The notes under the pieces: generated by a model | Seen by the model: only the letters and a program-made list of their open reading frames with translations | Told to the model about the DNA's origin: nothing | Database searches by the model: none | Shown: positions 1 through 25,567 of the stretch, one piece after another | Layout: every line of letters starts with the position of its first letter | How positions within the stretch are numbered: the stretch's first letter is position 1 | From: a bacterium | Lineage (GTDB): Bacteria > Cyanobacteriota > Vampirovibrionia > Gastranaerophilales > JBAXKC01 | Assembly (NCBI GenBank): GCA_037137535.1 | Contig: JBAXKC010000001.1 | Coordinates: forward strand, 280,584 to 344,583 | Direction of reading: 5' to 3' | DNA: 64,000 nt | Made by a program: the position numbers and the translations under genes

Positions 1-73
1 TTAAATTAATCCAAAATAATAACAGACAATAAAAAGCTAAACAAAATCAAAAAATAAAATATTTTTAATATGC

Positions 74-102
74 AAAAAGAACTCCCAATGGGAGCTCTTT
101 TT
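74..102 (-). terminator. Rho-independent terminator after zinc-ribbon gene
   Basis: aaaaagaactccc-aat-gggagctcttttt hairpin with A/T tails just past the stop at 135. Confidence 0.75.
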
Positions 103-134
103 GTTGAACCTTTTTACGTAGGCTATATAAATTC

Positions 135-422
135 CTAGTAGGAATTTGAATAGCAAGATTTACATAATACAGGTCTGTCGCTTGATGGTTTGAAAGGAAC
201 TTGAGCAGCTCCACCACAATCGGAACATACAGCATCGTACATTCTTTTTTGTTGGAATCCACCAGCACTTCTTCCGCCACCTTTTCTAGCGCTACGGCAA
301 GGCTTACATCTTTTTGGTTGGTTTGTTAAACCTTTTGATTCGTAAAATTCTTGCTCGCTTACTGTGAAATCAAATTCACAACCACAGTCTGCACATTGTA
401 AAGTAATGTCTTGATACGCCAT
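135..422 (-). CDS. Small zinc-ribbon protein (zf-trcl-like + CxxC-x17-CxxC domain)
   Basis: CADC...CKPC and CSDC-x17-CKSC motifs; F-T-x-x-EQ-x-FY-x-x-KG signature; AGGAGG SD upstream. Confidence 0.9.
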   Translation of the reverse strand: MAYQDITLQCADCGCEFDFTVSEQEFYESKGLTNQPKRCKPCRSARKGGGRSAGGFQQKRMYDAVCSDCGGAAQVPFKPSSDRPVLCKSCYSNSY

Positions 423-583
423 TATAGGCCTCCTTTTGTTAATCGATACGCTTTGAATGAGGCCTAGATAATGATATTTAACTGGCTTACTTCAAAAAAG
501 CTATCTTTTTAGTATGTAACTATCTCACTTGAGATTATAAGAAATCCTGCTTCCAAGCAAATAATTTCTTACAACTAAGACTT

Positions 584-614
584 ATTATATAACAAATAGT
601 TCCACTTATGTCAA
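584..614 (-). promoter_or_regulatory. Sigma70-type promoter of zinc-ribbon gene
   Basis: Minus strand TTGACA (614-609), 17 nt, then TATATA (591-586) preceded by TGn, overlapping TATAAT (589-584). Confidence 0.6.
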
Positions 615-755
615 CACCCAAAATAAAATATTTTTTTAAATAAAACAAAATATCCATAGATAGTTGATATAAAAGGACCTTTAAAAAACATTGAACTTAA
701 TAAATTAAAATATACCCGCCACAGATTCAATAAACTTATCCATAAAATTTCAAAC

Positions 756-799
756 AAAAAGAAACTTCTACTATCCTAAAATAGAGAAGTTTCTTTTTT
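756..799 (-). terminator. Rho-independent terminator
   Basis: aaaaagaaacttct ... agaagtttcttttt inverted repeat right after the stop at 815. Confidence 0.75.
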
Positions 800-814
800 C
801 AATTTACTTATTAA

Positions 815-2473
815 TTAAAATTTAAATTTTAATCCTGCTTGAGCCGAATAATCACCGTTGTCTAAAACATATGATAAGTTAGCATATGGATTTAATCCGT
901 TATCTTTATTTCCTGATAATTCAAGATCAAATTGTGGTGTTACGTTGCGTCCTGACTCAAGAGGTATATTTACAGCTACTCCCGCATTAACATTCACATC
1001 AGGAATACTTAAGTTAGGATATTTTGCTCTGTCCTCAACAGGAATACCAAAAGCATTATTATTGTAGAAAGCTCCTGCTCTTACATAAGGGGTATTACTA
1101 AATCCTGTTGTTTGACCTATAACTCCAAGATCTTTTGAAATTTGAGAACCATCATTAAATTTAGCAACTAAAGAACCTGATGTTTGAGTGTTATAAGGGT
1201 TATTTAAATTCAAACCAAGCCCTAATCCTAATCCATATCTTTCATTAGTAGTCGGATTGTTTTTATCGTCAAAAAGTTTATTTCCAATGTTTAAATTTGC
1301 TTGTAAAACTGCTTCACCTCTTGCAGGAGTTGTATCCACAGATAAACCTGTTCCAATTGAGCCATCATTATTTAGCTTTTCAGTTCTAAATGAAATAGCA
1401 GGATCTGTTGGCAATAATTGATTATTTGTTGAAAGTCCTAATCCTGTATTAACTATAATTCCTTCTTTTGTTTTTGGATCAACAGGTGCGTTTGTTAGGG
1501 TGCTTGCGACAGGAGAACCAAGCCTTTTATTTGAAGTAACTAAACTTATTTGAGGCTGTTCCGGAGGAGTAGGTTTATCTTCGGGCTTTGTAGGCTCTAC
1601 CGGTTTAGGATCTACGGGTTTTGTTGCGTCTGGAGTATCATAAGAACTGCTTAAGAGTTCCATTACGTTTTGATTTGTAATTTCTTTTCCATTTACATTT
1701 CCACAAAAATTCCAATGTCCAAAAGCTTCATCTTTTAATACTTGGACAGAATCACCATTTGGCATAAAGATAGCATACATTGTTTCATTATCTCTTTTTA
1801 TTCTTGCTCCGTTAGGGAAAGATATTTCTTGCCCCGGCTGAATATCTTTACCATCAACCTTTAATGTATTTGAGCCTTCATTTATTTGAATATTATTTCC
1901 GCCGATTTTTATATTGCCGCTTGTTATGCCTTCATTTCCATTTGGCAATTTTCTTACGTTTACATCGATTGAATAATCTTTATCGCCTAAGTTTTCAGCA
2001 TTAGCATCATGGTTTACAAAATTTGTAGGCTTATTTAGAGTTGATACATCTGAAACTAGACCTGTTGCATCATTATTTCCTTTTACGGTCAAAAGATTTA
2101 AATTTTCATATAATCCTTTTGGAATATCAACAGTAGTCTTGTCATGAGTTGCATTAGGGTCGCTACCTGATCCCCAGAAGAAACCCGGTAACTTTGTTGT
2201 TGTAGGCTGAGAGACTGACTTTATATCTGTACTAAAATGTCTTGCTGCATTTGCAGCTTCTACTGTTTTTTCAAAATCCGCAAAACCACTTTTAAAATCA
2301 GTGCTATTCATCAAGTTCTCTAAAGAATTTGCAGGAATATTAATACCATCCTTTTTCCAGATACTTGCCTGATCAGCCACAGCCTTTTTCTCAGCTCCGG
2401 GAACAAGTCCGGTGTTTAAAGTTACAGGTGCCTTACCTACGAGCTGACTAGCCTGATTAATGAATTCTCCCAT
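815..2473 (-). CDS. Orphan protein: beta-rich (VWD-like) domain, Pro-rich linker, putative C-terminal beta-barrel
   Basis: Long ORF; likely start MGEFINQ at 2473 (AAGGAG SD) rather than 2551; PVDPKPVEPTKPEDKPTPPEQP linker; alternating amphipathic strands ending YSAQAGLKFKF. Confidence 0.7.
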   Translation of the reverse strand: MGEFINQASQLVGKAPVTLNTGLVPGAEKKAVADQASIWKKDGINIPANSLENLMNSTDFKSGFADFEKTVEAANAARHFSTDIKSVSQPTTTKLPGFFWGSGSDPNATHDKTTVDIPKGLYENLNLLTVKGNNDATGLVSDVSTLNKPTNFVNHDANAENLGDKDYSIDVNVRKLPNGNEGITSGNIKIGGNNIQINEGSNTLKVDGKDIQPGQEISFPNGARIKRDNETMYAIFMPNGDSVQVLKDEAFGHWNFCGNVNGKEITNQNVMELLSSSYDTPDATKPVDPKPVEPTKPEDKPTPPEQPQISLVTSNKRLGSPVASTLTNAPVDPKTKEGIIVNTGLGLSTNNQLLPTDPAISFRTEKLNNDGSIGTGLSVDTTPARGEAVLQANLNIGNKLFDDKNNPTTNERYGLGLGLGLNLNNPYNTQTSGSLVAKFNDGSQISKDLGVIGQTTGFSNTPYVRAGAFYNNNAFGIPVEDRAKYPNLSIPDVNVNAGVAVNIPLESGRNVTPQFDLELSGNKDNGLNPYANLSYVLDNGDYSAQAGLKFKF

Positions 2474-2894
2474 CTTAATACTCCTTTTATAAATTTTACA
2501 TTTTAAATATTTCGTATATATTTCGTATATATTTATAAAAACATTTCGCATGAAAAAATTGCCTGTTAAAAGCCAATATTCATGTTTTTACCATAATTTT
2601 TATAAGAAAATACTACTAAACACTTTAATTACAGACCATTTGACAAATCTAAAGTTTTGTAACATTTGCTTGCGAATTATTAATTTTTTAGTCAAATAAA
2701 GAAATACCTCTTTATTGTTTGTTTTTTTATAATAAAGCATTAAAATTTAATTAAAATCAAACAATTAATTAAGTTTTAATCTATTTCAATAACCTTAGAG
2801 ATTAAAATTCAGTTTAAAAACAAAAAAATAATGCTCTATCAATTAAGAACATATTTTATTCCCCAAAATATATTTATTTTATTTAATCTAAGAA

Positions 2895-2923
2895 TTGACC
2901 AATGACAATAAATTCTCTATAAT
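2895..2923 (+). promoter_or_regulatory. Sigma70 promoter of the pilin/tail-collar operon
   Basis: TTGACC(2895-2900)-N17-TATAAT(2918-2923). Confidence 0.7.
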
Positions 2924-3039
2924 GAGATATATAGTTGAATCTACATGAATCAAACAAAAGAAATCACAATAAAATCACCATAACATCAGAAACTGACTTT
3001 CAAAAATTGTAATATTGTAAAAAAATAGGGCTGGATTGT

Positions 3040-3924
3040 TTGAAAATTAAAAATAAAAAATTATATTTTAAGACTGGCTTAACTCTTGTAGAGTCTTTAT
3101 TTGTTATGGTAATAATGAGTACAGTTTTAATATCCAGTATTCCTATTTTTGCCAATAAAAAAATACTTAGAACAGACACTCCAAATATTGGAATTGTGGC
3201 AATTTGGGCAAACCCCGGAGCCATTCCTTCAAACTTTCTTGAATGTAACGGACAAGCATATAACGTAGCTGACTATCCTGATTTATTCAACATTATTGGA
3301 ACGTCCTACGGTGGAGCAGGCTCAACTTTTAATGTCCCAAACTTACAGGGAAGAACTGCAATAGGAGCAGGAACTGGAGCTGGACTTACAAATAAAGTAT
3401 ATCAAACAACAGTAGGCTCTGAGGAAGAAAGTCTTACATTAGCTCAACTTCCAAACCATGTTCATATCTTTAACGACCCTGGACACAAACACTGGGACTC
3501 AGGACATGCTCATGGAACAAGCGACCCTGGACACAAACACTGGGACTACGGACATTCTCACACTTTATGGGATGGCTGGCACAGTCATTATTATAGAGAT
3601 GTTTATTATTCTGAGTTTGGCTCAACTCCTGTCCCATGGGACATAGGAACAAATGCCAGAAGTGATTATGACAATAAAGGTCTTGAAATTCGCAGAAATA
3701 CAAACTGGACCGGCTCGAATATCGGAATATATAATGGTTATGCAAATGTATCCTATCAAAGTAGCAATCTTGCCGCTTCTACTAATAACGGTAATGCTTC
3801 CATTCAATCAGCTCTAAGCAATGTAACCGTACCTGTAAGCGGTGGAAGTGGAACTGCAACAGGAAATCCTCATGAAAATATGCTTCCTTTTAGAGCTTTA
3901 AGATATATTATTAGAGCAAAATAA
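3040..3924 (+). CDS. Prepilin N-terminus + phage tail-collar/His-rich tail fibre protein (paralog 1)
   Basis: G|LTLVE..P22 prepilin motif; collar motif IPSNFLECNGQ..YPDLF..IG..YG..FNVPNLQGR; six HxH; C-terminal HENMLPFRALRYIIRAK. Confidence 0.88.
   Translation: MKIKNKKLYFKTGLTLVESLFVMVIMSTVLISSIPIFANKKILRTDTPNIGIVAIWANPGAIPSNFLECNGQAYNVADYPDLFNIIGTSYGGAGSTFNVPNLQGRTAIGAGTGAGLTNKVYQTTVGSEEESLTLAQLPNHVHIFNDPGHKHWDSGHAHGTSDPGHKHWDYGHSHTLWDGWHSHYYRDVYYSEFGSTPVPWDIGTNARSDYDNKGLEIRRNTNWTGSNIGIYNGYANVSYQSSNLAASTNNGNASIQSALSNVTVPVSGGSGTATGNPHENMLPFRALRYIIRAK
3474..3547 (+). repeat. 26-bp perfect intragenic direct repeat (48-nt period)
   Basis: cgaccctggacacaaacactgggact at 3474-3499 and 3522-3547 (DPGHKHWD twice). 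Confidence 0.9.
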
Positions 3925-3965
3925 TAACTGATTAATAATTACGTTTCATAAGAAAAGAGGCTGGA

Positions 3966-4943
3966 TTGACAAGAAATCTTAATACTAAAAAATCACTTAA
4001 ATTTCCAAGAAATGGTTTAACTATTTCAGAAGTATTAGTTGTTATGGTTTTATTTGGTGTTATTGCTGTTTCTTCTATACCTGCTTTTACTTCTAATGAA
4101 ACTCAAAACAGAGATTTAATAGCAAGTATTGGAAGTATTATGCTATGGGCAGGTAATGGAAATCCTCCGCCTAATTTTGTTGAATGTAATGGACAATCAC
4201 TCAACAAAGCTGATTATCCACTATTATTTGGTGTTATCGGAAATACCTACGGTTCTACAGCAACAAAATTCAACGTTCCTGACATAAGAGGCAGAGCCGT
4301 AATAGGGGCAGGACAGGGAACAGACCCAAGTCCCTATTCAGGAGTAAGCCCAAACCTGACTCTTAGAAATTTTAAAGATATAGGCGGAACTGAAACTGTC
4401 ACTCTTACAGCCGCTGATTTGCCTAATCATGCTCATGGAGTAACAGATCCCGGACATACTCATTCAGATGCGGGGCATGCCCATTCGGTTGCAGACTATG
4501 GACATTCTCATGTTGATTGGGGGCATGTTCACTCAGTATGGGATGGCGGACATTCTCATTACTATGATGATATTTATTATGCAGAAAGTATGGGTTATGC
4601 TAAATGGATATCAGGTGGTGGAGCAAATCCACATGGATATAATCACCCAAGCCCTAACGGACCTTTTGTTGGTAATGGACAAGGAGATTGGACAGACTTT
4701 GACAATGGCGGACATGATATGGGACGTTGGACAAATGCTTCACCTTCGAATTTAGCTCTTTATCCAGGCTATGCAAACCTTACCTATAATGGAACAAATG
4801 TAACCTTTGGGACAGGCTATGCTAATCTTACCTCTAATTCGGCAAACCTCACAATAGTTCCCAGCGGAGGAAGTAATCCGGTTACTCCGCATAATAATTT
4901 GTCAGCTGCTCTTGTATTAAAATATGTAATTAAAGCCCGATAA
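3966..4943 (+). CDS. Prepilin N-terminus + phage tail-collar/His-rich tail fibre protein (paralog 2)
   Basis: G|LTISE..P22; PPNFVECNGQ..YPLLF..IG..YG..FNVPDIRGR; six HxH; ends LKYVIKAR. Confidence 0.88.
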   Translation: MTRNLNTKKSLKFPRNGLTISEVLVVMVLFGVIAVSSIPAFTSNETQNRDLIASIGSIMLWAGNGNPPPNFVECNGQSLNKADYPLLFGVIGNTYGSTATKFNVPDIRGRAVIGAGQGTDPSPYSGVSPNLTLRNFKDIGGTETVTLTAADLPNHAHGVTDPGHTHSDAGHAHSVADYGHSHVDWGHVHSVWDGGHSHYYDDIYYAESMGYAKWISGGGANPHGYNHPSPNGPFVGNGQGDWTDFDNGGHDMGRWTNASPSNLALYPGYANLTYNGTNVTFGTGYANLTSNSANLTIVPSGGSNPVTPHNNLSAALVLKYVIKAR

Positions 4944-4973
4944 AACATAATACGCTTATAGAAAGAGGACAGG

Positions 4974-5864
4974 ATGTTAAATTCTTTAAAAATTAAAAAT
5001 AAGAATAAAAGATTTGGACTATCTCTTACAGAAGCGTTAGTTGTTTTAATGGTTGCAGGTGTTGCAGTTGCTGCCTCTATGCCAACAATGTCGGTAAAGA
5101 CATTACTTAAAACTAATTCAGATGTAAGTATAGGTGCTATTGTAATATGGGCAAACAATGGAGCTATTCCTGCTAATTACCTTGAATGTAACGGCCAAAC
5201 CGTAAACAAAGCAGATTATATAAACTTATACAGTATTATTAGCGGTACTTATGGACAAACGGCAACTCAATTCAATGTTCCCGATTTAAGAGGCAGGACT
5301 GTTATTGGAATGGGAAAAATAAGTGCCTTGAGCAAACAACGTAATTTTAATGATGTGGGTGGTAAAGAAAAAGTAAGACTTATTGATACAAATTTACCTG
5401 CTCATTCCCATATAGTTAACGACCCGGGTCATACTCATGCAGACCTCGGGCATACTCATCCTGTTTATGATCCGGGGCATAAACACTGGGATTATGGTCA
5501 TAGCCATGGAGTATGGGATGGTGGACATAGCCATGAATATGGCGATATATATTTTTCAGAATCATGGGGCTGGGTTCCGACACCTGATGGTTTTGGACAC
5601 TGTGCTAAAAGCGATAATGACAACTATGGTTTTCAAATGGGACGCTATACTGATCTAGCCACAAGTAATATTGGTGTTTATCCTGGTAATGCAAATTTCA
5701 CAACAGAACATACAGGTGTTTCAGCTGCTACAGGTACGGCAAATCTTGGCAATTCAGTCACAGGTGTTAACTTAAACGCACCTGCAACAGGTGGCGACGA
5801 TAATAATCTTCATGAAAATATGCCGCCGTTTTACACATTGAGATATATCATTAGAGCAAGATAA
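4974..5864 (+). CDS. Prepilin N-terminus + phage tail-collar/His-rich tail fibre protein (paralog 3)
   Basis: G|LSLTE..P22; IPANYLECNGQ..FNVPDLRGR; six HxH; ends HENMPPFYTLRYIIRAR. Confidence 0.88.
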   Translation: MLNSLKIKNKNKRFGLSLTEALVVLMVAGVAVAASMPTMSVKTLLKTNSDVSIGAIVIWANNGAIPANYLECNGQTVNKADYINLYSIISGTYGQTATQFNVPDLRGRTVIGMGKISALSKQRNFNDVGGKEKVRLIDTNLPAHSHIVNDPGHTHADLGHTHPVYDPGHKHWDYGHSHGVWDGGHSHEYGDIYFSESWGWVPTPDGFGHCAKSDNDNYGFQMGRYTDLATSNIGVYPGNANFTTEHTGVSAATGTANLGNSVTGVNLNAPATGGDDNNLHENMPPFYTLRYIIRAR

Positions 5865-5888
5865 CTAATTTTTTATATTAAATATATT

Positions 5889-5925
5889 AAAAGAGCTGTT
5901 AAACTTAAAAATTAACAGCTCTTTT
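5889..5925. terminator. Bidirectional terminator
   Basis: aaaagagctgttaa / ttaacagctctttt 14-bp inverted repeat between convergent genes. Confidence 0.85.
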
Positions 5926-5949
5926 TGATAAATAATATAATAATGCCTT

Positions 5950-6543
5950 TTAATGCTTTTCCAACTCATTTTTTATAGCCTTTAACGTTGTAGGCAAGGT
6001 GTTGTTAAGCCCATAAGAACGTAAAAAAGACGGTAAATAGAAACCAAGATCAATATACATTGTATAGGTTAATATAGAATTACCCTGATACGGTTCGATT
6101 TCCCAAGATCCGTATAATTCTTTAAAAGAACCTTCAGTTCTTTTATATATAATTGTTTTAGTTCTTTCATTTTCATCTAAATGCAATGTATATTGAAATA
6201 CGGGTAAAGCAGGAGCTGTTTTAAGTGAAACCTGCACCTTTTGGAAATTATGTCCTTTTGCAAGAATTTTATTTTGACGAACCCCAGGGACTATTCGCCC
6301 CATTCTTTCCTGATTTTCAAGTAAAGCCCATACTTTTTCAGGTGATGAATGAATTAATACTTTTCCTTCAGTTCCTTTTAAATCACCCTTGCAATTAAAA
6401 AATCTTAAAGCGACTTCACCCTTTTGCAATCTTGTAATATTTTCTATTGCCATTGCTTTATTTGGAAATTGCATTGAGAAAATCAAGGATGGGATAATAA
6501 TAAGACTCATAAGTCCGTAATGTAGTTTGAGTTTTGTATTCAT
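5950..6543 (-). CDS. SRPBCC (polyketide cyclase/START-like) family protein with N-terminal signal/TM
   Basis: IHSSPEKVWALL...GSFKELYGSWEIEP pattern. Confidence 0.75.
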   Translation of the reverse strand: MNTKLKLHYGLMSLIIIPSLIFSMQFPNKAMAIENITRLQKGEVALRFFNCKGDLKGTEGKVLIHSSPEKVWALLENQERMGRIVPGVRQNKILAKGHNFQKVQVSLKTAPALPVFQYTLHLDENERTKTIIYKRTEGSFKELYGSWEIEPYQGNSILTYTMYIDLGFYLPSFLRSYGLNNTLPTTLKAIKNELEKH

Positions 6544-6625
6544 ATTTAACCTAGCGTTTTAATAATCTTAAACTACTAGGTTATTGTAAACACTTTTTAT
6601 AGTCAACAAATAATACACTACAAAC

Positions 6626-7510
6626 TTAACAATTATCTATTTTCTTATAATTTGTTAATATCCAACTTTTTGACTTAATTTTTTCCTGTAGAATCAAATC
6701 TTGTGTTGTTAAAAACTCGATATATCTAGGATTTTTAGGATTAAGATCTTTAAATTTACAGGGATGAATAAGCATTTCAGTAATACAATTTTTGTCTTTA
6801 ATACTGTTTAAGCCTGATTCAATAGTTTGTGAGTCCATAAACCCTGTATAAGCTACACCGATTATGTAATCATTTGTTTTAACACCATATTGAGCAGCAG
6901 TTTTATGATTTATTGCTGATAAATGATTAAGCAGAGCCACTTTTATAGTATTTAAAGGATACCAGAGGTTTAAATGCTTTTGCAGTTGCGGGACTACATA
7001 AGGTTTTTCATATTGAGTCCTTACGTAAGTAATATTATATTCTTTAGCAAGTTTACATGTAATTTCAAATATTGGGGGAATAGCATGGATATGAACATGT
7101 GAATTCAAATGATCGACTTCAACTTGAGAAAGAATAAGTTCTATTTGATTTCTGAAGTCGTGTTCAATTTCTAGCAATAATTTTTTATTTTTTGATTTTG
7201 CAAGAAGAGAATGAAAACTATTTTGATAAGTTCCATCTGAAGAACATAATAACGAAGAAGCAGAATAATTTTTCAGAGTTGTTTTGCCTTCCATTATATT
7301 TAAGTGAACGCCAAGCCCCATCTCCTCACATTCAGGAAGCACTTCTTTTATAGCATGCTCAAAAGCCTCTCCATTTGCACAAAGACATGCACTTGTGAGA
7401 AAACCTTCTTTATATCCAATTTTTACGCCTTCGTTAAAATCTTTATTTATACCAAAATCATCAGCATTAAAAATAAGTAATTTTTTATTGCCCGAACTCT
7501 CCAACTTCAT
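6626..7510 (-). CDS. ChbG/HpnK/YdjC family carbohydrate deacetylase
   Basis: LIFNADDFG, GLGVHLN, DHLNSHVHIH, EMLIHP motifs. Confidence 0.9.
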   Translation of the reverse strand: MKLESSGNKKLLIFNADDFGINKDFNEGVKIGYKEGFLTSACLCANGEAFEHAIKEVLPECEEMGLGVHLNIMEGKTTLKNYSASSLLCSSDGTYQNSFHSLLAKSKNKKLLLEIEHDFRNQIELILSQVEVDHLNSHVHIHAIPPIFEITCKLAKEYNITYVRTQYEKPYVVPQLQKHLNLWYPLNTIKVALLNHLSAINHKTAAQYGVKTNDYIIGVAYTGFMDSQTIESGLNSIKDKNCITEMLIHPCKFKDLNPKNPRYIEFLTTQDLILQEKIKSKSWILTNYKKIDNC

Positions 7511-7646
7511 TTATAATGCTCCAAAATAAGTTTATTAAACTACTTTTATAACTAGGGAATAATTTATTCTTATATTAAACTCAGACTCATTATATTATAA
7601 TAATTGTAGATTGTAATAATTTTTAAATTAATAAAATGGTGGATAT

Positions 7647-8600
7647 ATGCAAAATCCTATTTTGGCGATAGTTATTCCATGTTTTAACGAACAGGATTTA
7701 ATAAAAAGCACGATTAACAGTTTACTTTGTAAAATTAAAGAACTGTCAAATTCAAATATCATAAGTGATGAAAGTTTTTTATATTTTATAGATGATGGTA
7801 GTCACGATGAAACGTGGAATATTTTGCAAAAATCCAACCAAGAAAATTCTAAAGTAAAAGCACTTAAACTTTCAAGAAACTTTGGAAATCAAAATGCTTT
7901 ACTAGCAGGACTTTTAGGAGTTCAGGCGCTTAATCCCGATTGTGTAATAACAATGGATGCCGACCTTCAGCAGGATGAAAACAGTATTAAAGAATTCATA
8001 GAAAAATACAAAAACGGTGCGGATATTGTCTGCGGAATAAGAAAAGACAACGAAACTTATTCAATTTTCAAAAATTGCACTTCAGTTTTATTCTATAAAT
8101 TAATGAACTTAATGGGGGCAAAAATTGCTGAAAATCATTCTGATTACAGGTTGATAAACAAAAAAGTCCTTAATGTATTAGCCGAATACAAAGAAGTAAA
8201 TTTATTTCTTAGAGGAATTTTTAACGAATTAGGCTTTAAAACAGAACATGTTTATTTTGATGTAAAACCCCGAGCAATAGGTCAATCAAAGTTTGGAATT
8301 TTAAAGCTGTTGTCGCTTGCGTTAAGCGGTATTACTTCCTTCAGTATAGTTCCATTAAGGATAGTCTCAGTTATAGGGTTATTAATGTCATTTTTTAGCT
8401 TTTTAATGGGAGTAGAGGTTATATACGAAAAAGTCTTTGGAACAGGAGTTATTCCTGGTTGGGCAACAATTGTAGTTGCTGTTTGCTTTATAGGCGGTGT
8501 TCAAATTTTCTGTACGGGTATTATCGGTGAATATTTAGGACAAGTCTACAAGGAAACAAAGGCAAGACCTAGATATGTAAAAGATATTGAGCTTTTATAA
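7647..8600 (+). CDS. GT2 polyprenol-phosphate glycosyltransferase (GtrB/ArnC-like)
   Basis: IVIPCFNE, IDDGSHD, SRNFGNQNALLAGL, MDADLQ; two C-terminal TMs; GEYLGQVYKETKARPRY. Confidence 0.92.
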   Translation: MQNPILAIVIPCFNEQDLIKSTINSLLCKIKELSNSNIISDESFLYFIDDGSHDETWNILQKSNQENSKVKALKLSRNFGNQNALLAGLLGVQALNPDCVITMDADLQQDENSIKEFIEKYKNGADIVCGIRKDNETYSIFKNCTSVLFYKLMNLMGAKIAENHSDYRLINKKVLNVLAEYKEVNLFLRGIFNELGFKTEHVYFDVKPRAIGQSKFGILKLLSLALSGITSFSIVPLRIVSVIGLLMSFFSFLMGVEVIYEKVFGTGVIPGWATIVVAVCFIGGVQIFCTGIIGEYLGQVYKETKARPRYVKDIELL

Positions 8601-8620
8601 ATTATCTTACTTTTAATATT

Positions 8621-8658
8621 AAAAAAACAGCCTGTTTTAAAAAAATAGGCTGTTTTTT
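8621..8658. terminator. Bidirectional terminator
   Basis: aaaaaacagcct..aggctgtttttt hairpin between convergent genes. Confidence 0.8.
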
Positions 8659-8672
8659 ATAGTTACTTAATT

Positions 8673-10376
8673 TTAATCGGAAATTATTTCTGACAATAAA
8701 GAATATTTTTTTCCTTTATTTACTATCTTAAACTTAATATTTTTAGCAGTATCTTCAAGATTTTCTGTCTTTATAATTATTACGGAATTGACAGTTAAAT
8801 CTCTTTTTAATCTTTGATAATCGCAAGTTTTTATAAAATCAACTTGTTTTTCATAATAAAAAAGAGTGCTTGGTCTAACCCCAAAATCAAAAGTTATAAG
8901 TTTTTTATTATACTGTTTTGCAAACTTTGCATAACTTACAAGTTCATTCTCACCACCATTATAAATCATAGGAATTACATAATTTATTGAAATTAATAGA
9001 ATCCCGACCATAAATAAAAGCTGTGATGTGAATAAAAGAACTTTTTTATTAAAACGAATGAATATAAAGTTTGCAATAGCTGTAATAAGTGCTAATGCAA
9101 TAGTATAAGTTTTTAGAGGAGCTGAAAGAAATACAATTCCTTTATTATTAAGCACAGGCACTATAAAAATTGCAGCAACTCCTGCTAATAAAAGAATTAC
9201 GCTAAAAATACCTGTTGATATTTTAATTCCACTATTATTTTTGCCATTTTCAATAAATTGATACCAATAATAACCTGTTAATAAAGCTGCCGCAGGATAT
9301 AGAGGCAAGATATAAGTTGCAAGTTTTGTGCTTGATGCGCTGAAGAATAACATTACTAAAGCAAAATAACAAATCATAAGAACTAATAATTTTTCGGTTC
9401 TTTTTTCTTCGTTTACTGCAAAAATATCTTTTAATTTTGTATATAAGCTCAAAATATTATCTTTGGTGAGATGTTTAATTCCATTAATTGTACTAGCTAA
9501 AAAAGAACAAATCCATGGAAAAAATCCAACTGCAAAGACAGGAAGAAAGAAGTAAAGAGGAGCCTGTCTTCCTATTCCTTTTGAATCAATAAATCTTGAA
9601 AAATGCTGTTTTATTATATAATCATTAACAAAAGCCATTCCGTTTTTATGGAATATTGCTAAATGCCATGGAAGAGAAATTGTAAAAAATATGACAAAAC
9701 CAGGTAAAATATTTTCCGGCTTAAACATTTTTTTAAGATTACCAGTAATTGTAGCGACAAAACCCATAACCGCAAAAGGTAAAATCAATCCCGGTAGGCC
9801 TTTAGCTAAAACAGCCAAAGCACTAAAAAAATAAGCTGCCCACCAATAATACTTCTGATTTGACTCTTTGCAAAAATAAGTTAAAAATCCCGAATAAATT
9901 GAAGACATGATAAATGTAGAAAGAATCATATCAATTATTGCGACTCTTGCTAAAACCAAAAATTGTATACACGAAAGTAAAATCAACGCACTAATTAAAC
10001 CAAATACTCTTGATATAGTCTTTTTACCGAAGTAATAAGTATAAAACACTGCAAAGCTGGCTGTTAAAGCAATTGGAAATCTCGCAGTAAATTCCGAAAT
10101 TTTACCAAATAACATATAAGAAGAAGCAAGCATCCAAAAATACAAAGGTGGTTTTTCATAAAAAATATTAAAATTAAGATGCATTGTTATCCAGTCGGAT
10201 TTCTGCAATATTTCCCTTGCCATATCTGCATATCTTGTCTCATCAACGTCAATTAAAGGGTTTAATCCTAATTGATGAAATAGAAAAATATAACAAAAAA
10301 CAAAAAGACATAGGCAAGACATAATTTCTGCGTGCTTTTTGCAAAATATTATTAAACTATTTATTGTATTTTTCAA
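8673..10376 (-). CDS. ArnT/PMT-family (GT-C) membrane glycosyltransferase
   Basis: DVDETRYADMAREI, YEKPPLYFW, LAKG, STKLATYILP motifs; many TMs. Confidence 0.9.
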   Translation of the reverse strand: MKNTINSLIIFCKKHAEIMSCLCLFVFCYIFLFHQLGLNPLIDVDETRYADMAREILQKSDWITMHLNFNIFYEKPPLYFWMLASSYMLFGKISEFTARFPIALTASFAVFYTYYFGKKTISRVFGLISALILLSCIQFLVLARVAIIDMILSTFIMSSIYSGFLTYFCKESNQKYYWWAAYFFSALAVLAKGLPGLILPFAVMGFVATITGNLKKMFKPENILPGFVIFFTISLPWHLAIFHKNGMAFVNDYIIKQHFSRFIDSKGIGRQAPLYFFLPVFAVGFFPWICSFLASTINGIKHLTKDNILSLYTKLKDIFAVNEEKRTEKLLVLMICYFALVMLFFSASSTKLATYILPLYPAAALLTGYYWYQFIENGKNNSGIKISTGIFSVILLLAGVAAIFIVPVLNNKGIVFLSAPLKTYTIALALITAIANFIFIRFNKKVLLFTSQLLFMVGILLISINYVIPMIYNGGENELVSYAKFAKQYNKKLITFDFGVRPSTLFYYEKQVDFIKTCDYQRLKRDLTVNSVIIIKTENLEDTAKNIKFKIVNKGKKYSLLSEIISD

Positions 10377-10526
10377 AACGGTACTTCCTCCGAAAATATA
10401 ATTTATTGGCTTTTTTAAGTATAATTTAAGAAACTATATTAAATTATACTTAAAAAGAGCTTAGTTCTTTAGTAAAAAAAGTTTAAGTAAATTAATTGTT
10501 ATAAGTTAAAATCACGAGGAAGTAAC

Positions 10527-10913
10527 TTGAAAAAAATTTTATCTCAATATTACAGATATATAATTGCAGGTTTTTTAGTTGTAGCTATAGACTTCGTTAT
10601 TTTGGCTTTTTTGACAGATTTTATTCATGTATATTACTTAATATCGGCTTGTTGTGCTTATATATTTGCCTCTGTAATTCATTATTTCATAAGTACAAAT
10701 TATATTTTTGACGAAAGCTCCATAAAAAATAAATACCATGAATTTTTAATATTTTTCGGCCTGGGGGCTATAGGATTAATATTATTTGAAATACTTATGT
10801 ATCTTTTCACAGATTATTTGGGCATCTATTATCTTGCTTCAAAAATAATAGTTTCAGGAATTATGTTTACTTTTAATTTTGCAACAAGAAAATTAATTTT
10901 ATTCCGAAATTAA
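10527..10913 (+). CDS. GtrA-family lipid-linked sugar translocase
   Basis: 128 aa, four TMs, ends FNFATRKLILF. Confidence 0.88.
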   Translation: MKKILSQYYRYIIAGFLVVAIDFVILAFLTDFIHVYYLISACCAYIFASVIHYFISTNYIFDESSIKNKYHEFLIFFGLGAIGLILFEILMYLFTDYLGIYYLASKIIVSGIMFTFNFATRKLILFRN

Positions 10914-11654: not shown

Positions 11655-11697
11655 AATAAAAACACCTTTAATTGCATAAATTAAAGATGTTTTTATT
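11655..11697 (-). terminator. Probable terminator
   Basis: aataaaaacacctttaat / attaaagatgtttttatt near-perfect inverted repeat after the stop at 11718. Confidence 0.6.
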
Positions 11698-11717
11698 TTT
11701 AAGATATTAATGCTAAT

Positions 11718-11957
11718 TTATTTTTGAATGGCTAAAACTTCTTCTAGTCGTTCGTCCATATACTTGTAAGCATCCGCAATTCCTTGATTATAAAACTCGG
11801 GAGCAAGCTTTTCCGCAATAAATCCTAAAATAAGTTCGGCAGCTAAATCTCCCAAATCTTCTTCTCGTTCTTTAATAAAATAGTTTTTAATTTCATAAAG
11901 CATATATGCCTTTTTTTCAGCACTTAATTGTAATGCAGTAGAGTTTTTTCGAGCCAT
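11718..11957 (-). CDS. DUF2164 family protein
   Basis: YF..EREEDLGDLAAELIL.FI...LAP.FYNQGI.DA pattern. Confidence 0.85.
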   Translation of the reverse strand: MARKNSTALQLSAEKKAYMLYEIKNYFIKEREEDLGDLAAELILGFIAEKLAPEFYNQGIADAYKYMDERLEEVLAIQK

Positions 11958-12194
11958 TTATTGTAGTTCCTTTATTTTATGAAAAAATTATATACCTTTA
12001 ATAACCCAAAGTTATATAAAACACCATAAATAATATTATTTAGATTTGTCGCGAAGTAATAAAAAATCAGACACTCTCCAAGAAGCTAAAAGTGGAGAGA
12101 AGAGATTTAAACTACATTATGAAATTTGTTTACGAATTTTGACAATTTTTTGATAGACTAAATGTAAATTTACTTTTAAAATTTGAGGTAAATA

Positions 12195-13082
12195 ATGAAA
12201 AAATTGATATTTATTTTAGCTATATTTATATTTTTCTTTTCTGCATTTGCTTCAGCAAATAATTACTCCCTTCAAAAAAACCCTGATTTAAGACTAAAAG
12301 TAAAAACTGAACAAAATCAAGAAAAACTTACTGAATATAAAAAATACATTAACACCTTGCCAAAAAACAAAATTGAATCAATAACTAATGCAAAAAATAA
12401 ATATTTTCAGCTTTTTTCCGTAAGTGACAGCTTAAATTTAAAAGATAAAGCATTTTTTCTATTTCAAAAAAAATATATGGAAATTATTGACGATCAACAA
12501 AGCGCAATAGGTTTTATGGATGGATTACATATTTATAAAGAAATAAAAAAAGATTATTGTGATATTGATAAAAAACGTTTAAAACAAAAAGAAGATTATT
12601 ATAAACAATATGGATTAAAGTTAAATTATATTTATAAAGGGTATGTCCCAGATATAGATTATAATTATTTAATTAATCAATTTAAAACATATATTAGCCC
12701 ACAAATGAAGGAATATTTGAGCTTTTGTTTTAAAAATCCTAATTTAGATGTAATAGATGAAGGAGAAGTGCTAATTAATTGGGACAAATTACGTGAAAGA
12801 TTAATTTATTTAGAAAATTTTATCAATAAAAATCCTGATTTCGCAGCTAAAGATTTTGCAAAAGAATCATTAAATTGGTACTTAGATTTATACACAGGTG
12901 AAACAAGCTCTCTTTATTCTAATAATTTTGATACACAAGATTATATAAGAGATGATGCAAAGCACAGTTTTGAAATATTTATTAAACAAAATAAAAGTTC
13001 AAAATATTATTTAAGAATTTATAAAAAATACAATCAGTTGAAAAAATATAACTTTAATATTAGCAAATATAATCAATATTAA
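12195..13082 (+). CDS. Hypothetical exported protein
   Basis: MKK + hydrophobic stretch + AFA/ASA signal peptide; GAGG SD; very AT-rich. Confidence 0.7.
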   Translation: MKKLIFILAIFIFFFSAFASANNYSLQKNPDLRLKVKTEQNQEKLTEYKKYINTLPKNKIESITNAKNKYFQLFSVSDSLNLKDKAFFLFQKKYMEIIDDQQSAIGFMDGLHIYKEIKKDYCDIDKKRLKQKEDYYKQYGLKLNYIYKGYVPDIDYNYLINQFKTYISPQMKEYLSFCFKNPNLDVIDEGEVLINWDKLRERLIYLENFINKNPDFAAKDFAKESLNWYLDLYTGETSSLYSNNFDTQDYIRDDAKHSFEIFIKQNKSSKYYLRIYKKYNQLKKYNFNISKYNQY

Positions 13083-19490: not shown

Positions 19491-20810
19491 TTATCTTACA
19501 CTCATACCTTCGTTAAGATATTTAATTAGAGGATAGATAAAGAACTCAATAATTCTACGTTTTCCTGTTTTAATTTCGGCGGTAAGACTCATACCGGAGG
19601 AAATACCCATTCTTTTTCCTTCAACTTTAAATTCTTTTTTCTCAGGAACGATATAAACCTCATAAACAGGGCCTAATGTCTTATCATCAATACTATCTTT
19701 TGCTATTTGAGTAACTTTTCCACCTAAAAGGCCATATTTTTGGAAGTCAAAAGTATCAACTTTAATACTTACGTCCATGTTTTTACGAATAAACCCTATA
19801 TCCTTGTTTAAAACAGTTGCTTTAATTAATAAAGGTGAATTACTGGGATACATTGAGATTAATTTCTGTGCAGGTGTTACAACACCGCCTTTTGTATGAA
19901 CAAAAAGCTCATTAATATAACCATCATCAGGAGCAGTAAGAACTTGTTTTTTATTTCTATATGCAGATTGATCTAATTGAGCTTTTAACTGAATCGATTG
20001 TTTTGTCTTATCTGCAAGTTCTTTTAATAACTCCGAACGGAAATTTTGACGAAGATAGCCCATTTCTTGAACAATTTGTCTTTTTTGCTGACTTAATTCC
20101 GATACTTTATAATTTGAACTTTGTATATTTGCCGTATTAGTTGTAATCTCATCAGCAACCTTGTCATAATCATCTTTAGGAATAATATCAATAATCGGCT
20201 TTAATCGTTTTTCTTTTGAACTGGCCGTCCCTAAAAGTTTTCTATATTGATATTTTTGAGAAACAGCAGTTCTTATTTGCTCGTCTGTTTTACTTAATTC
20301 AGTATGTTTAGCGGCAAGTTGACTGCTTATACTTTCCCTTAAGGAGTTATAAACATCTTCCTGTTCGATAATATCATTTAAATCATATTTTTTAAATGAT
20401 GGAGTAAATGCTCTACCCTCTGTAAGTGCTTTTAGTCTTTCAATTTCAAGAGAGATATATTTGTAGCTTTTTTCAAGCGATGTAAGTTCTGTTTTTGTTG
20501 TAGAAGGATCAATATCAATAACAGGTTGACCTTTTTTTACAAAATCGCCTTCTCTTACATGAATAGTTCCAACTACACCTGAATCAAGCGGCTGTATTAC
20601 CTTTATTTCACCGTCAGGAATTACTTTACCTCTGGCACTAACAACAATATCAATTTGCCCTACAGACGTCCAGATTATAAAGAAAAATATTATAGTTACA
20701 ACAATCCAAAAGACAAAACGACCTAATGGACTGACGGGTTCATCCTCTATTTCAGCAATAGCGGGTTTGAATTGATAGCTGTCATCTTTTGAAAAGATTT
20801 TTTTTAACAT
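19491..20810 (-). CDS. HlyD-family type I secretion membrane fusion protein
   Basis: N-terminal TM, coiled coil, GMSLTAEIKTGKRRIIEFFIYP C-terminus. Confidence 0.95.
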   Translation of the reverse strand: MLKKIFSKDDSYQFKPAIAEIEDEPVSPLGRFVFWIVVTIIFFFIIWTSVGQIDIVVSARGKVIPDGEIKVIQPLDSGVVGTIHVREGDFVKKGQPVIDIDPSTTKTELTSLEKSYKYISLEIERLKALTEGRAFTPSFKKYDLNDIIEQEDVYNSLRESISSQLAAKHTELSKTDEQIRTAVSQKYQYRKLLGTASSKEKRLKPIIDIIPKDDYDKVADEITTNTANIQSSNYKVSELSQQKRQIVQEMGYLRQNFRSELLKELADKTKQSIQLKAQLDQSAYRNKKQVLTAPDDGYINELFVHTKGGVVTPAQKLISMYPSNSPLLIKATVLNKDIGFIRKNMDVSIKVDTFDFQKYGLLGGKVTQIAKDSIDDKTLGPVYEVYIVPEKKEFKVEGKRMGISSGMSLTAEIKTGKRRIIEFFIYPLIKYLNEGMSVR

Positions 20811-22912
20811 TCATCGCTCTCCTGCTGGGTATAAAGATGATGGTAATAACCTTGGGCTTTCAGTAACTCATCATGAGAACCAGCTTCTATAATTTTACCT
20901 TTATCCATTGCGATAATAATATCACAATCTTTGACGGTAAACAGTCTATGCGCAATTATCAGAGTAGTTCTACCTTTTTTAATTCGGCTCATATTATTTT
21001 GAATAATTTTTTCAGATTCATAATCCAGTGCTGAGGTTGCCTCATCAAAAATCAATATCTTAGGGTTAGTAATAATAGCTCTTGCAATTGCAACTCTTTG
21101 ACGTTGTCCACCGGAAAGAGTTGAACCTCTTTCTCCTACAAGTGTATCATATCCTTCAGGCAATTGCGAAATAAACTCATGAGCTCCTGCGATTCTTGCA
21201 GCCTCAATAATTACTTCCATAGGTGCTCCCGGACGAGCTAATGAAATATTTTCTCTTATAGTTCCGCTGAACAGGTAATTATCTTGTAACACAATTCCCA
21301 TGTTATTTCTTAACCATAAAGGGTTCATATGCTTAATATCTACGTCGTCAACATAGATAGCACCTTCATTTGTAAGATAAAGTCTTTGAATTAACTTAGT
21401 AACAGTACTTTTACCGCTACCACTTCTTCCTACAAGACCAACGGACATACCGGGCTGTACGGTAAAGCAAACTCTATCAAGGATATAAGGGGAACTCATA
21501 TTGTATTTAAAACATACATTATCAAAACGAATGGATCCCTTAACATCATGGAGGGTAATTGCTTTATCCGTTTGAATTTCCACAGGGTTATTTAAAATAT
21601 CACCAAGTCTATCAACTGCAAGTAACGTTTGTTGAAATTCATTCCATAAGTTTACAAGCCTTAAAACAGGGTTAGTAAACTGATTCGCAAACATTTGAAA
21701 TGCGATTAACTGACCGATTGTTAATTTATTCTCGATAACAAGCCTTACACCTATGTAAAGTACGAAAATAGTCATTAATTTTTGCAATCCACTTGAAGTA
21801 GCACCTGTTACAGTTGCCATATTAGAAAGATTGAAACTTGATCTTACATAGTTTGAAAGATAATCTTCCCATTTCTTTTGCATAGTTCCTTCTATGGATA
21901 GAGATTTAATGGTTTGAATACCTGTTACAGACTCAACAAGATAAGAATTTGATTGAGCTGCCATTTGAAACTTATCATTAAGTCTTTTTCTAAGTTCAGG
22001 TGTAATAGTTACATAAATTACAGCGACCATAGAAATAAATGCTAATACGATAAATGTAAGTTTAACGCTGTACAAGAACATTACCGCAACAAAAACAAGT
22101 GAGAAAAATAAATCAATAATTAGAGAAACTGACTTGTTTGTAATAAATTCCCTGATAGAATCAAGCTCTCGAACTCTTGCGATAATATTTCCTACTTTTC
22201 TGTTTTCAAAATATACAAATGGAAGCGAGAATAAGTGCTTGAAAAGTTTTGCTCCTAATTTCGCATCAATTTTATTTGAAGTATGTATGAAAATATAATT
22301 TCTGGAAAGATTTAATAGGAATTCAAAAACGGTTACAGCAACGAAAGCAACTGCAAGCACATCAAGTGTTGTCAAACTGCGATGTACAATAACTTTATCG
22401 AGAATTACCTGAGTGAACAATGGTGTTATAAGTCCAAAAAGCTGAACAATAAAAGAACCTAACAATACTTCAGCTATAACTGTTTTATAGCGCATAATTT
22501 CATTATAAAACCAGATGAAACCAAAAGTGATCTTAGCTTGATTAACCTTTGGCTTTAATATAATAAAACGACCAGAACCTTCTTCGGCTAAAGCTTGAAA
22601 GGTTAACTCTTTTGATATTCTTTCAATAGTGTCAAAAATAAGAACCTTTTTATGCTCACTATTCAAACTTAAAATAATTTTATAATTTTTTTCTTTAGTT
22701 ATATAAATAGCAGGTAATGGATATTTTTCCAGCTGTTCCATAGTAATAGATTTGAACTTAGCTTTAAATCCATTATTTTGCATTATTCTAAGTAAATCGT
22801 AGTCAAGAATCTCGTTTTCATTTAAGCCATATTCTTTTATAATGGCTTGAATGTCGACATCAATTTGATTTATTCTTGCAACAACTTCAAAAGCTATTAG
22901 CCCAGTTTGCAT
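20804..22912 (-). CDS. HlyB-family type I secretion ABC transporter with C39-like domain
   Basis: GRSGSGKST Walker A, LSGGQRQR, DEATSALD; PLFTQVILDKV TMD. Confidence 0.95.
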   Translation of the reverse strand: MQTGLIAFEVVARINQIDVDIQAIIKEYGLNENEILDYDLLRIMQNNGFKAKFKSITMEQLEKYPLPAIYITKEKNYKIILSLNSEHKKVLIFDTIERISKELTFQALAEEGSGRFIILKPKVNQAKITFGFIWFYNEIMRYKTVIAEVLLGSFIVQLFGLITPLFTQVILDKVIVHRSLTTLDVLAVAFVAVTVFEFLLNLSRNYIFIHTSNKIDAKLGAKLFKHLFSLPFVYFENRKVGNIIARVRELDSIREFITNKSVSLIIDLFFSLVFVAVMFLYSVKLTFIVLAFISMVAVIYVTITPELRKRLNDKFQMAAQSNSYLVESVTGIQTIKSLSIEGTMQKKWEDYLSNYVRSSFNLSNMATVTGATSSGLQKLMTIFVLYIGVRLVIENKLTIGQLIAFQMFANQFTNPVLRLVNLWNEFQQTLLAVDRLGDILNNPVEIQTDKAITLHDVKGSIRFDNVCFKYNMSSPYILDRVCFTVQPGMSVGLVGRSGSGKSTVTKLIQRLYLTNEGAIYVDDVDIKHMNPLWLRNNMGIVLQDNYLFSGTIRENISLARPGAPMEVIIEAARIAGAHEFISQLPEGYDTLVGERGSTLSGGQRQRVAIARAIITNPKILIFDEATSALDYESEKIIQNNMSRIKKGRTTLIIAHRLFTVKDCDIIIAMDKGKIIEAGSHDELLKAQGYYHHLYTQQESDEC

Positions 22913-23007
22913 CTTTTACCCTTTAAATAACTTGTAGTAGATAGATTATAGCTATAAATTTGTTTTTTGCAAATCAACCTACAAGAGGAGTTATTTACAA
23001 AATTAAT

Positions 23008-24532: not shown

Positions 24533-25567
24533 TTAAGTTGAGAATAACAAAAGAGAATAAGTTTCTATTATTGCTTTACCAAAAAACATTGCTATTATTG
24601 CCCCAAAAACAAGAGCCGGCCCGAATGGCAAAAATGTAAAACTTTGACGTTTTTTTGCTCCTTCAATAATGACTATTGCACCAATACCCGCAAGGAATAA
24701 AGCCACTAACATTGTTAATAACGCACCGATAGTAGTATTTGAAATACCCAGTAATTTACTTAAAGAAGGAATAGCAAGAGAAAATAACATTAACGAGGTA
24801 TAAGCAATTGATTTATAATCTTTATCCTTATACATATTAATTACAATGATTGGAATACCGACTATAACCTGAAAAATCAAGCTCAATGCAACAATTAAAA
24901 ATAATTGTTTAACTCCAAACCAAGCACCAAGTCCTGCCGCTAAAACAGTATCACCTTCGCCAAATGCTCTTTCTCCGACAAATATTTTTCCCAGTCTGGA
25001 AATAACTTCAAATAAAGCCGCTCCGACTATTGCTCCTAAAACTGAATAAAGAAAGGCTTCTGGCATAAATCCAAATACTGGAACACCAATAGATCCAGAA
25101 CCATACCCTCCGATGTCAAAGAAACTATAAAGCAAACCCAATGGGATTAATGGAATTGATACAGCATCATAAATCAACTGTTCTTTTAAATCGGTAACTG
25201 TAATTACAATTAATCCTGCGGTAAGAATCATTAAGAATAAGGTTTTTAATGACATTCCAAAACTGAGGTATAAAAGTATAAATAATAAACAGGAAGCACC
25301 TTCAACCAATGGATACTGTATACTAATTTTTGCTTTACAATGCCTGCATTTAGCTTTCAAAAGAATATAGCTTAATATTGGGACATTATCATACCATGCA
25401 ATTTTAGTATGACATTTAGGACATTCTGATCTTGGCCTCGCCATGCTTTCACCTGATAAAAGCCTTAATGCTACAACATTTAAGAAACTTCCGATTATTA
25501 AACCTAAAAAACCGGCAACAAAAACGAAATAGGATTGGCTAAAAATATTAAAAACTTCTTCTGTCAA
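24533..25567 (-). CDS. pilD: Prepilin peptidase / N-methyltransferase (A24A)
   Basis: GSFLNVVALRL, CPKC...WYDNVPILSY...CRHC, catalytic Asp motifs TDLKEQLI and GEGD, LPFGPAL. Confidence 0.93.
   Translation of the reverse strand: MTEEVFNIFSQSYFVFVAGFLGLIIGSFLNVVALRLLSGESMARPRSECPKCHTKIAWYDNVPILSYILLKAKCRHCKAKISIQYPLVEGASCLLFILLYLSFGMSLKTLFLMILTAGLIVITVTDLKEQLIYDAVSIPLIPLGLLYSFFDIGGYGSGSIGVPVFGFMPEAFLYSVLGAIVGAALFEVISRLGKIFVGERAFGEGDTVLAAGLGAWFGVKQLFLIVALSLIFQVIVGIPIIVINMYKDKDYKSIAYTSLMLFSLAIPSLSKLLGISNTTIGALLTMLVALFLAGIGAIVIIEGAKKRQSFTFLPFGPALVFGAIIAMFFGKAIIETYSLLLFST

Follow-up and report, generated by a model that had tools for sequence, protein, structure and literature searches.

Three tandem genes joining a class III pilin signal to a phage-type collar fibre in a freshwater member of the Gastranaerophilales

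In this study we analysed a 64,000-nucleotide stretch of DNA, called the window below (GenBank assembly GCA_037137535.1, contig JBAXKC010000001.1, positions 280,584 to 344,583, forward strand), from a Gastranaerophilales genome of 2.95 Mb and 31% G+C, whose freshwater origin is indicated by the sequencing runs containing it. Near its beginning lie three tandem genes whose products start like type IV prepilins and continue like phage tail fibres. A preliminary description of the locus had noted three open reading frames (ORFs) here, which were found at exactly the positions given, and had read them as a pilus-mounted adhesin system. The features needed below are as follows, where HxH stands for His-x-His.

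3040..3924, plus strand: pilin-collar-needle gene 1, 294 residues, TTG start (leader 3040-3078, pilin helix 3079-3144, collar 3190-3357, HxH arm 3457-3588, C-terminal closing strand)
3966..4943, plus strand: pilin-collar-needle gene 2, 325 residues, TTG start (leader 3966-4016, pilin helix 4017-4082, collar 4131-4298, HxH arm 4428-4559, 15-residue tip insertion)
4974..5864, plus strand: pilin-collar-needle gene 3, 296 residues, ATG start (leader 4974-5018, pilin helix 5019-5084, collar 5133-5303, HxH arm 5403-5534)
4765..4838, plus strand: repeat in the return arm of gene 2 with the 48-nt (16-residue) period of the outgoing HxH arm (repeat families D1, D5 and D6)
2895..2923, plus strand: sigma70-like promoter consensus TTGACC-17-TATAAT, 11 of 12 matches, joint best in positions 1-8000
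5889..5925, no strand assigned: hairpin with two perfectly complementary 14-bp arms (5889-5902 and 5912-5925) and a loop of 9 nt, lying between A and T runs
24533..25567, minus strand: prepilin peptidase of PilD type (Pfam A24_N_bact 1.5e-32, Peptidase_A24 8.2e-14)

The products of genes 1 and 2 are 47% and 48% identical to that of gene 3, and all three share one order of parts: a basic leader, the signal G|L-x-x-x-E5, an uncharged tract, Pro22, a linker and the collar, followed by six HxH motifs, a variable tip, a return arm and a strand that closes the collar. The lysine-rich leaders are 13, 17 and 15 residues long with a net charge of +5, and end in Gly at -1 in all three. The junctions G|LTLVE, G|LTISE and G|LSLTE are present as first described, each with Pro at +22 and with Glu5 as the sole charged residue before it in a 21-residue hydrophobic tract. 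The collar starts 14-15 residues past Pro22, not about 12 as had been estimated, and matches PF07484 with E-values of 2.3e-17, 2.5e-18 and 3.3e-17 (genes 1 to 3). The His-rich segment consists of six HxH motifs per protein, spaced 9, 7, 9, 7, 9 in every case and in identical register, all on the outgoing arm; the conserved C-terminal motif likewise aligns across the three proteins. Most of the variation lies between the two arms, at the tip, where gene 2 carries its insertion. In the DNA the outgoing arm repeats every 48 nt, and so does the return arm in gene 2, as would be expected if the needle were a hairpin.

The fusion is real, chromosomal and part of a lineage-wide family. Separately assembled contigs, identical in their letters, bridge all three pilin-collar junctions (2988-3506; 3085-3311, from a different study; 3966-4748; 4970-5281), hence the joining of the two parts is not an assembly error. 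All three frames are intact, and their G+C content at third codon positions (GC3, 0.21-0.24) is that of the genome (0.21 +/- 0.035). A profile search of the genome returned three Collar matches, exactly these three genes. The pilin motif is not a chance pattern either, since it matches just one of 336 other proteins from our collar searches. In the linker of gene 1, at position 3157, one contig from an RNA run (depth 2.35) is two letters short, which may be an error. A similar purine-rich stretch precedes each start codon (3020-3038, 3950-3968, 4955-4976), duplicated along with the genes, two of which start with TTG.

The fibre-like fold expected for these proteins was found in the model of gene 3. 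AlphaFold2, given 31 sequences, predicts a helix at residues 18-35, a collar with a predicted local distance difference test score (pLDDT) above 90 and an ordered last strand at 290-294, with coil between helix and collar; with the two paralogues alone the pLDDT was 29, and the 31-sequence input resolved the collar only. The best match in a fold search was T4 gp12 (1ocy; Z 10.3, root-mean-square deviation 2.5, 96 residues aligned), followed at Z 10.0 by the fibre of cyanophage A-1(L) (8kec) and at Z 8.9 by the gp37 needle (2xgf), these matches spanning 79-96 aligned residues, chiefly the collar. An Atlas model agrees, its residues 28-296 matching a cluster of collar fibres with a template modelling score of 0.59, and the body of each protein matches 15-20 phage tail families in PHROGs. 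Closure of the collar by the C-terminal strand is indicated by profile, model and closing-strand matrix alike. Fibres of the gp12/gp37 type are trimers stapled by metal, in which the turn bears the receptor site; in gp37 the collar is the trimerisation base, the HxH part, found on both arms, is the shaft with structural, buried histidines, and the tip binds. Collar and HxH needle had both been taken for receptor-binding parts at first; on the gp37 layout they would rather be base and shaft, and the variable tip would bind.

Pilin-collar fusions were found in a further 16 genomes of the order and, doubtfully, in one more, all belonging to one other family. The doubtful protein (G341) has no Pfam or PHROGs collar match. 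Among the fusions there are needle-bearing, needle-less and split forms. The needle-bearing form comprises the three window genes, P0162 and a protein of genome G339, which has no Pfam collar but matches by PHROGs (1.3e-20) and hhalign (99.6%). P0162, on a 9,170-base contig, is 37-41% identical to the window proteins and has G|VTLAE, Pro22, a collar and four HxH motifs; it came from a profile search of 1.84 billion representatives, of which the best 150 matches, mostly multi-collar proteins, were considered and weaker fusions missed. The needle-less form (~110-137 residues, collar closed at once) is found in 14 genomes, in 13 of them at one conserved chromosomal site. The genes at this site (L149, L158, L160, L161, L166, L173-L177, L182-L184) are convergent with two paralogous ~295-residue genes that have no Pfam match, and a pentapeptide-repeat gene lies nearby. 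The split form consists of five scattered copies in genome G511 (L168:205-1161, L169:3934-4980, L172:386-1353, L170, L171). In all five the pilin-collar stops short of the closing strand, and an ORF with its own signal peptide begins 14-18 nt downstream; the three complete partners have a variable, Cys-containing body, a Gly-rich linker and then the collar's closing strand, which scores 18.2 bits on a closing-strand matrix against a best of 8.2 in 2,218 genome ORFs (window genes excluded).

A protein database yielded 51 further fusion clusters at 90% identity, 43 of them with the closing strand and eight without. All 20 aligned fusion sequences have both Glu5 and Pro22; among the motif-matched database proteins Pro22 is kept in 51 of 51 although it lies outside the motif, residue -1 is Ala in 45 and Gly in six, and one cluster has Gln5. 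Seven of eight fusion proteins scanned among the relatives pass the N_methyl cut-off. The fused homologues examined are chromosomal, so that the family is not confined to prophages, as had been considered. A collar tree (97 rows, 66 columns, quick method, with the G341 protein excluded by the domain filter) groups the window genes with P0162 (Shimodaira-Hasegawa-like approximate likelihood-ratio test, SH-aLRT, 90) and places the gut forms apart (80), without separating one from two origins. Single-protein searches with gene 3 and P0162 gave no further fusions, a pattern scan of genome contigs with P0162 gave no match, the A3 scans (10 loci, best 80 of 292, best 80 of 453) gave none with a pilin signal, and a viral scan with P0278 gave one 19-residue match only. 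Samples from the class and phylum outside the order contained collar-only matches; with 8 or 11 candidates scored per genome, this negative applies only to the genomes searched.

Other pilins of the order also carry added modules, trimeric fibre modules among them. Among ten tested, four combine N_methyl with a YadA head and Peptidase_S74, and four have glycine-rich domains, two of these under the N_methyl cut-off. The pilins with YadA head repeats (L218, L219, L220, L228), whose Peptidase_S74 part is a C-terminal fibre chaperone, are 648-729 residues long, and each gut genome has many such long pilins; those at L181, L222, L226, L227, L229, L045 and L046 have glycine-rich or Lcl_C modules, and among these loci one pilin-like ORF has fibrinogen-C matches and one has FN3-like repeats, recognised by eye. 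Two automatic ESM Atlas clusters provide leads: one of 75 proteins with Collar and N_methyl (score 0.88), possibly the query's own cluster, and one of 51 members with N_methyl and phage baseplate Gp10_C (score 0.77, low). Elsewhere in the class, one further family encodes collar proteins with signal peptides just after collagen-like repeat proteins, in no obvious phage context (L004, L006, L007, L008).

The host genome encodes pilus machinery: five ATPases of the type II secretion system (T2SS) E type, three T2SSF platform genes, three secretins, PilM and 16 ordinary pilins; pil genes have also been noted in a Gastranaerophilales genome before (PMC5877343). The order assigned to the host is consistent with a genome of that order whose protein is identical to one labelled by NCBI as Ca. 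Galligastranaerophilus faecipullorum, a member of the Gastranaerophilales. From gene order, contigs C48 and C31 would encode a type IVa pilus, C7 a Tad system and C1:239-245 kb a T2SS-like system. The secretin, ATPase and platform genes of this last set share the contig of the triplet and lie ~38 kb upstream of it; among ORFs of at least 110 residues, none next to them is a pilin gene. The peptidase gene at 24533-25567 holds the only A24_N_bact match of the genome, and its product presumably processes the three prepilins. Directly downstream of it the window has a type I secretion set (19491-24318, minus strand: HlyD, ABC transporter, outer-membrane efflux protein). A Mu-like prophage on C35 has sheath and baseplate J genes, its contig ending just past the fibre gene, and C17 has a second prophage-like region with an S74 protein.

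Taken together, we think it probable that the triplet encodes minor type IV pilins, modular but headless, which trimerise through collar and needle and cap a filament as tip adhesins. The core of the preliminary description, a class III pilin helix with a collar-needle fibre in place of the head, is supported; the genes lie outside any prophage, and the genome has pilus machinery. Each prepilin would be anchored in the inner membrane by its uncharged tract, and PilD would cut after Gly and methylate Leu1, as the signal suggests. In the periplasm three chains may join through their collars, by analogy with gp12 and gp37; each would run out as an HxH arm of 16-residue period, turn in the variable tip and come back so that its last strand closes the collar, while His pairs of the three chains may hold metal on the axis, again as in gp12 and gp37. 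The trimer, with three pilin helices on linkers of 14-15 residues, which may accommodate the staggered positions of these helices in a filament, might then prime assembly like CofB, a homotrimeric minor-pilin initiator at the pilus tip (PMC6048534). Major pilins would be added beneath it and the needle would exit via a secretin, displaying some 15 nm as estimated from ~45 extended residues. The tip might bind a polymer or protein on the surface of cells or particles, and a PilT-type motor could then pull the cell in. As homotrimers the paralogues would give three specificities; mixed trimers are conceivable as well, since the HxH register of the three is identical. The likeliest carrier is the type IVa pilus, with the T2SS-like locus as the alternative. 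Prey recognition, which had also been suggested, found no support, and no VirB4-type match was found in the genome.

Several observations weigh against this reading. The proposed check with N_methyl and Collar profiles gave a clear result for Collar only: with hmmscan none of the three N-termini reaches the N_methyl (PF07963) cut-off of 21.2 bits (13.2, 19.8 and 14.7 bits for genes 1 to 3), in the genome search two of three stay under it (23.3, 19.3 and 16.4 bits), and TIGR02532 accepts gene 2 alone (17.4 bits, cut-off 16.3). Residue +1 is Leu in all three proteins, whereas the 16 ordinary pilins of the genome have Phe (10), Met (4) or Val (2). In favour of the pilin signal, a lineage profile from 30 non-collar pilins of the order scores the window proteins at 35.2, 31.3 and 22.9 bits, against at most -1.5 bits for 87 viral collar ORFs and at most 1.0 bits for 93 genome or metagenome ones, but half of this profile is non-independent because its class B training pilins were found with the fusion-family profile; conservation across the family is the stronger argument for the signal. 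The N-termini could not be assigned to a single pilin class, gene 3 preferring class B and genes 1 and 2 class A. Known modular pilins, as described in PMC8179133, retain alpha1C and the pilin beta-sheet and pack by them; both are missing here, the collar starting at mature residue 37-38. Despite six HxH motifs and matching 16-residue periods on both arms, the monomer model leaves the needle (residues 153-262) at a pLDDT below 50. No pilus gene adjoins the triplet, and a search of the genome for a tail-fibre chaperone (PF02413) was negative. The 40 nearest relatives include no needle-bearing form, and 43 of the 51 database clusters end straight in the closing strand without needle or tip. Adhesion by a needle tip is therefore not the role of the whole family, whose commonest members have neither part.

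The combination of pilin and collar is not categorically new, although the preliminary description was not aware of any such case. Milman et al. (2023) describe a fusion of shufflon PilV with a tail collar, in which they propose that a phage domain is reused for recipient specificity (PMC9881135). PMC8179133 catalogues 264 modular pilin architectures, and its Dataset S1 includes two with a collar, each represented by a single protein: N_methyl-FN3-Collar x3 and N_methyl-Shufflon_N-Collar. None of the four entries with IPR011083 in that dataset joins N_methyl directly to Collar, the portions of the two papers that we drew on contain no experimental characterisation of collar-bearing pilins, and our literature search, with subscription papers and bioRxiv supplements outside its scope, found no study of a direct headless fusion. 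What is new is the collar placed directly on the pilin helix, its occurrence as a triplet and the split variant in relatives.

The window proteins would work like modular tip pilins but have no pilin head, and they belong neither to the shufflon proteins nor to the virion fibres. Like the modular pilins PilB and PilC of Streptococcus sanguinis they graft a non-pilus module (here PF07484) onto a class III signal, which suffices for the definition of a modular pilin given in PMC8179133, and are probably adhesive and located at the tip. They differ in the missing canonical pilin fold and in a module that is an obligate trimer by homology. UCP91044.1, the PilV-collar protein, also joins a pilin N-terminus to PF07484; it keeps Shufflon_N, sits among pilus genes and varies by DNA inversion (PMC9881135), whereas the window proteins have no Shufflon_N (PF04917, E up to 1) and no signs of inversion, with neither invertible cassettes nor an integration family in the window flanks, and vary by tandem paralogues. 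The C-terminal domains of CofB and TcpB trimerise as well, as a tip initiator; CofB combines a complete type IVb pilin head with an H-type lectin fold and comes from a single gene in its pilus operon (PMC6048534), in contrast to the collar and needle encoded here by three genes at a distance from the machinery. T4 gp12 and gp37 and the cyanophage A-1(L) fibre share with the window proteins the HxH motifs, the collar closed by the last strand and, as predicted for the window proteins, a chain that runs out and back. The window proteins lack the virion-attachment part and any phage tail module, no chaperone gene was found in the genome, and all six HxH lie on the outgoing arm, unlike in gp37.

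Strand addition in cis or in trans is known from pilus tips (PMC13533445). The split relatives recall PilK and PilC/PilY1, in that a pilin is short of its last strand and a variable protein, secreted separately, ends in such a strand; in the split relatives the acceptor is a phage collar instead of a pilin sheet and partner binding is putative, while the window proteins supply the strand in cis. As proposed here for the window proteins, the MAT fibres of Bdellovibrio are cell-encoded, phage-fibre-like trimeric adhesins in paralogue sets (PMC10769870). The main text of that paper mentions neither "collar" nor "pilin", and the window host offers no evidence of predation. Finally, stand-alone collar proteins, annotated as microcystin-dependent protein or tail fiber protein (the label of most database hits), have a collar and HxH body outside a virion context but a class III signal in none of 117 hits, some having ordinary signal peptides.

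Four other explanations have to be weighed. The first, which we hold unlikely, is that the proteins are tip subunits or cargo of a pseudopilus built by the T2SS-like system at C1:239-245 kb, surfaced, released or recruiting periplasmic substrates, with no long pilus. This second secretin, ATPase and platform set has no evident pilin of its own alongside (ORFs of at least 110 residues), the triplet could mirror the GspI-J-K heterotrimer, and the needle-less and split forms resemble sockets more than adhesins. However, Glu5 is kept in all three proteins, whereas the capping K subunit does without it (PMC9934059), and a rigid needle with a variable tip would suit outward binding better than periplasmic work.

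Somewhat less probable still is a plain inner-membrane anchor, cleaved or uncleaved, holding a periplasmic trimer that serves, for instance, as an envelope scaffold or to store metal on its histidines. The weak Pfam scores, Leu at +1, the absent pilin head and the six HxH per chain would fit it. Yet an anchor needs neither Gly or Ala at -1 nor Glu5 nor Pro22, all of which are kept across the family, the histidines of gp37-type needles are structural and buried, and sequence variation is concentrated in the tip.

It is very improbable that the proteins act as phage decoys or are fibres that a prophage or contractile injection system has left behind or keeps as spares, even though the body of each protein matches phage tail families, the genome has its Mu-like prophage and prophages of relatives carry tandem collar genes: the 31 flanking ORFs, over ~44 kb, include no head, tail, connector or integration family, and in agreement with the preliminary description no capsid, baseplate, sheath or integrase; a pilin helix stands where a virion-attachment domain would be; GC3 is that of the genome and the frames are intact; 13 of 14 needle-less copies share one chromosomal site; and no pilin signal was seen in 87 viral collar ORFs or in the best 25 of 374 phage records. 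In the prophage-like regions of gut relatives (L020, L022, L024, L027-L030, L186) the collar genes form tandem arrays of three to six short genes (165-225 residues) that come after fibre and chaperone-like genes. Just as improbable are recipient-recognition tips of a conjugative pilus, as hypothesised for the published PilV-collar fusion among pilus genes (PMC9881135), given that nothing matched Shufflon_N (E up to 1) or, genome-wide, VirB4-type proteins, that there is no long inverted repeat in the window besides the terminator (the others being short, A+T-rich pairs) and that the pilin part is left uncovered in the 40 listed of 49 plasmid records.

As to transcription, the promoter at 2895-2923, called clear in the preliminary description, is indeed an 11-of-12 match, but such sites number 45 against 36.2 +/- 6.6 in shuffled sequence; since the total is not above that of the shuffles, we regard it as a consensus match only. 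The terminator stands, with -17.3 kcal/mol over 5881-5935; a terminator scanner omitted it because its loop limit is 8 and the actual loop is 9. Between gene 3 and a convergent gene, the hairpin is probably a bidirectional terminator. Two RNA libraries, both from one sample, yielded contigs that map to the three genes; the sample is possibly the genome's source, the libraries containing 76% and 23% of the words, and DNA carry-over is possible. None of these contigs lies over 7006-10741 or 11676-13076, both of which are covered by a DNA run, and we do not count this as evidence. The divergent neighbour (815-2551, minus strand) encodes 578 residues with a Pro-rich linker and a beta-rich C-terminus, possibly an outer-membrane protein; it has no Pfam match above cut-off, and RNA-library contigs lie on the gene. 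Next to the triplet, the stretch 6626-10913 encodes YdjC, a GtrB-like glycosyltransferase, a PMT-family transferase and GtrA, a surface-modification set.

A wider idea, possible in our view but rather doubtful as a whole, would combine three elements: the collar as replacement of the pilin head in the order's filament-starting tip platform, mixed trimers, and strand capture in trans. Three co-expressed chains might then form up to 11 cyclic combinations and so provide combinatorial tips without DNA inversion. Split collars lacking the last strand might capture secreted, hypervariable adhesins by beta-strand complementation, making the split system a phage-derived, convergent counterpart of PilK-PilC/PilY1 licensing, and the needle-less form would be a bare initiator.

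In conclusion, if the three proteins are indeed tip adhesins, a pilin helix of 22 residues would be enough for a type IV filament to carry a phage fibre that is an obligate trimer. The pilin head would be dispensable at the tip, and cells could adopt phage host-range modules for their own adhesion. The in-cis, needle-less and in-trans forms would offer a natural series in which to ask if completing the strand also triggers pilus assembly when the fold is unrelated. The attachment of uncultured Gastranaerophilales in lakes and guts would then become accessible to testing.

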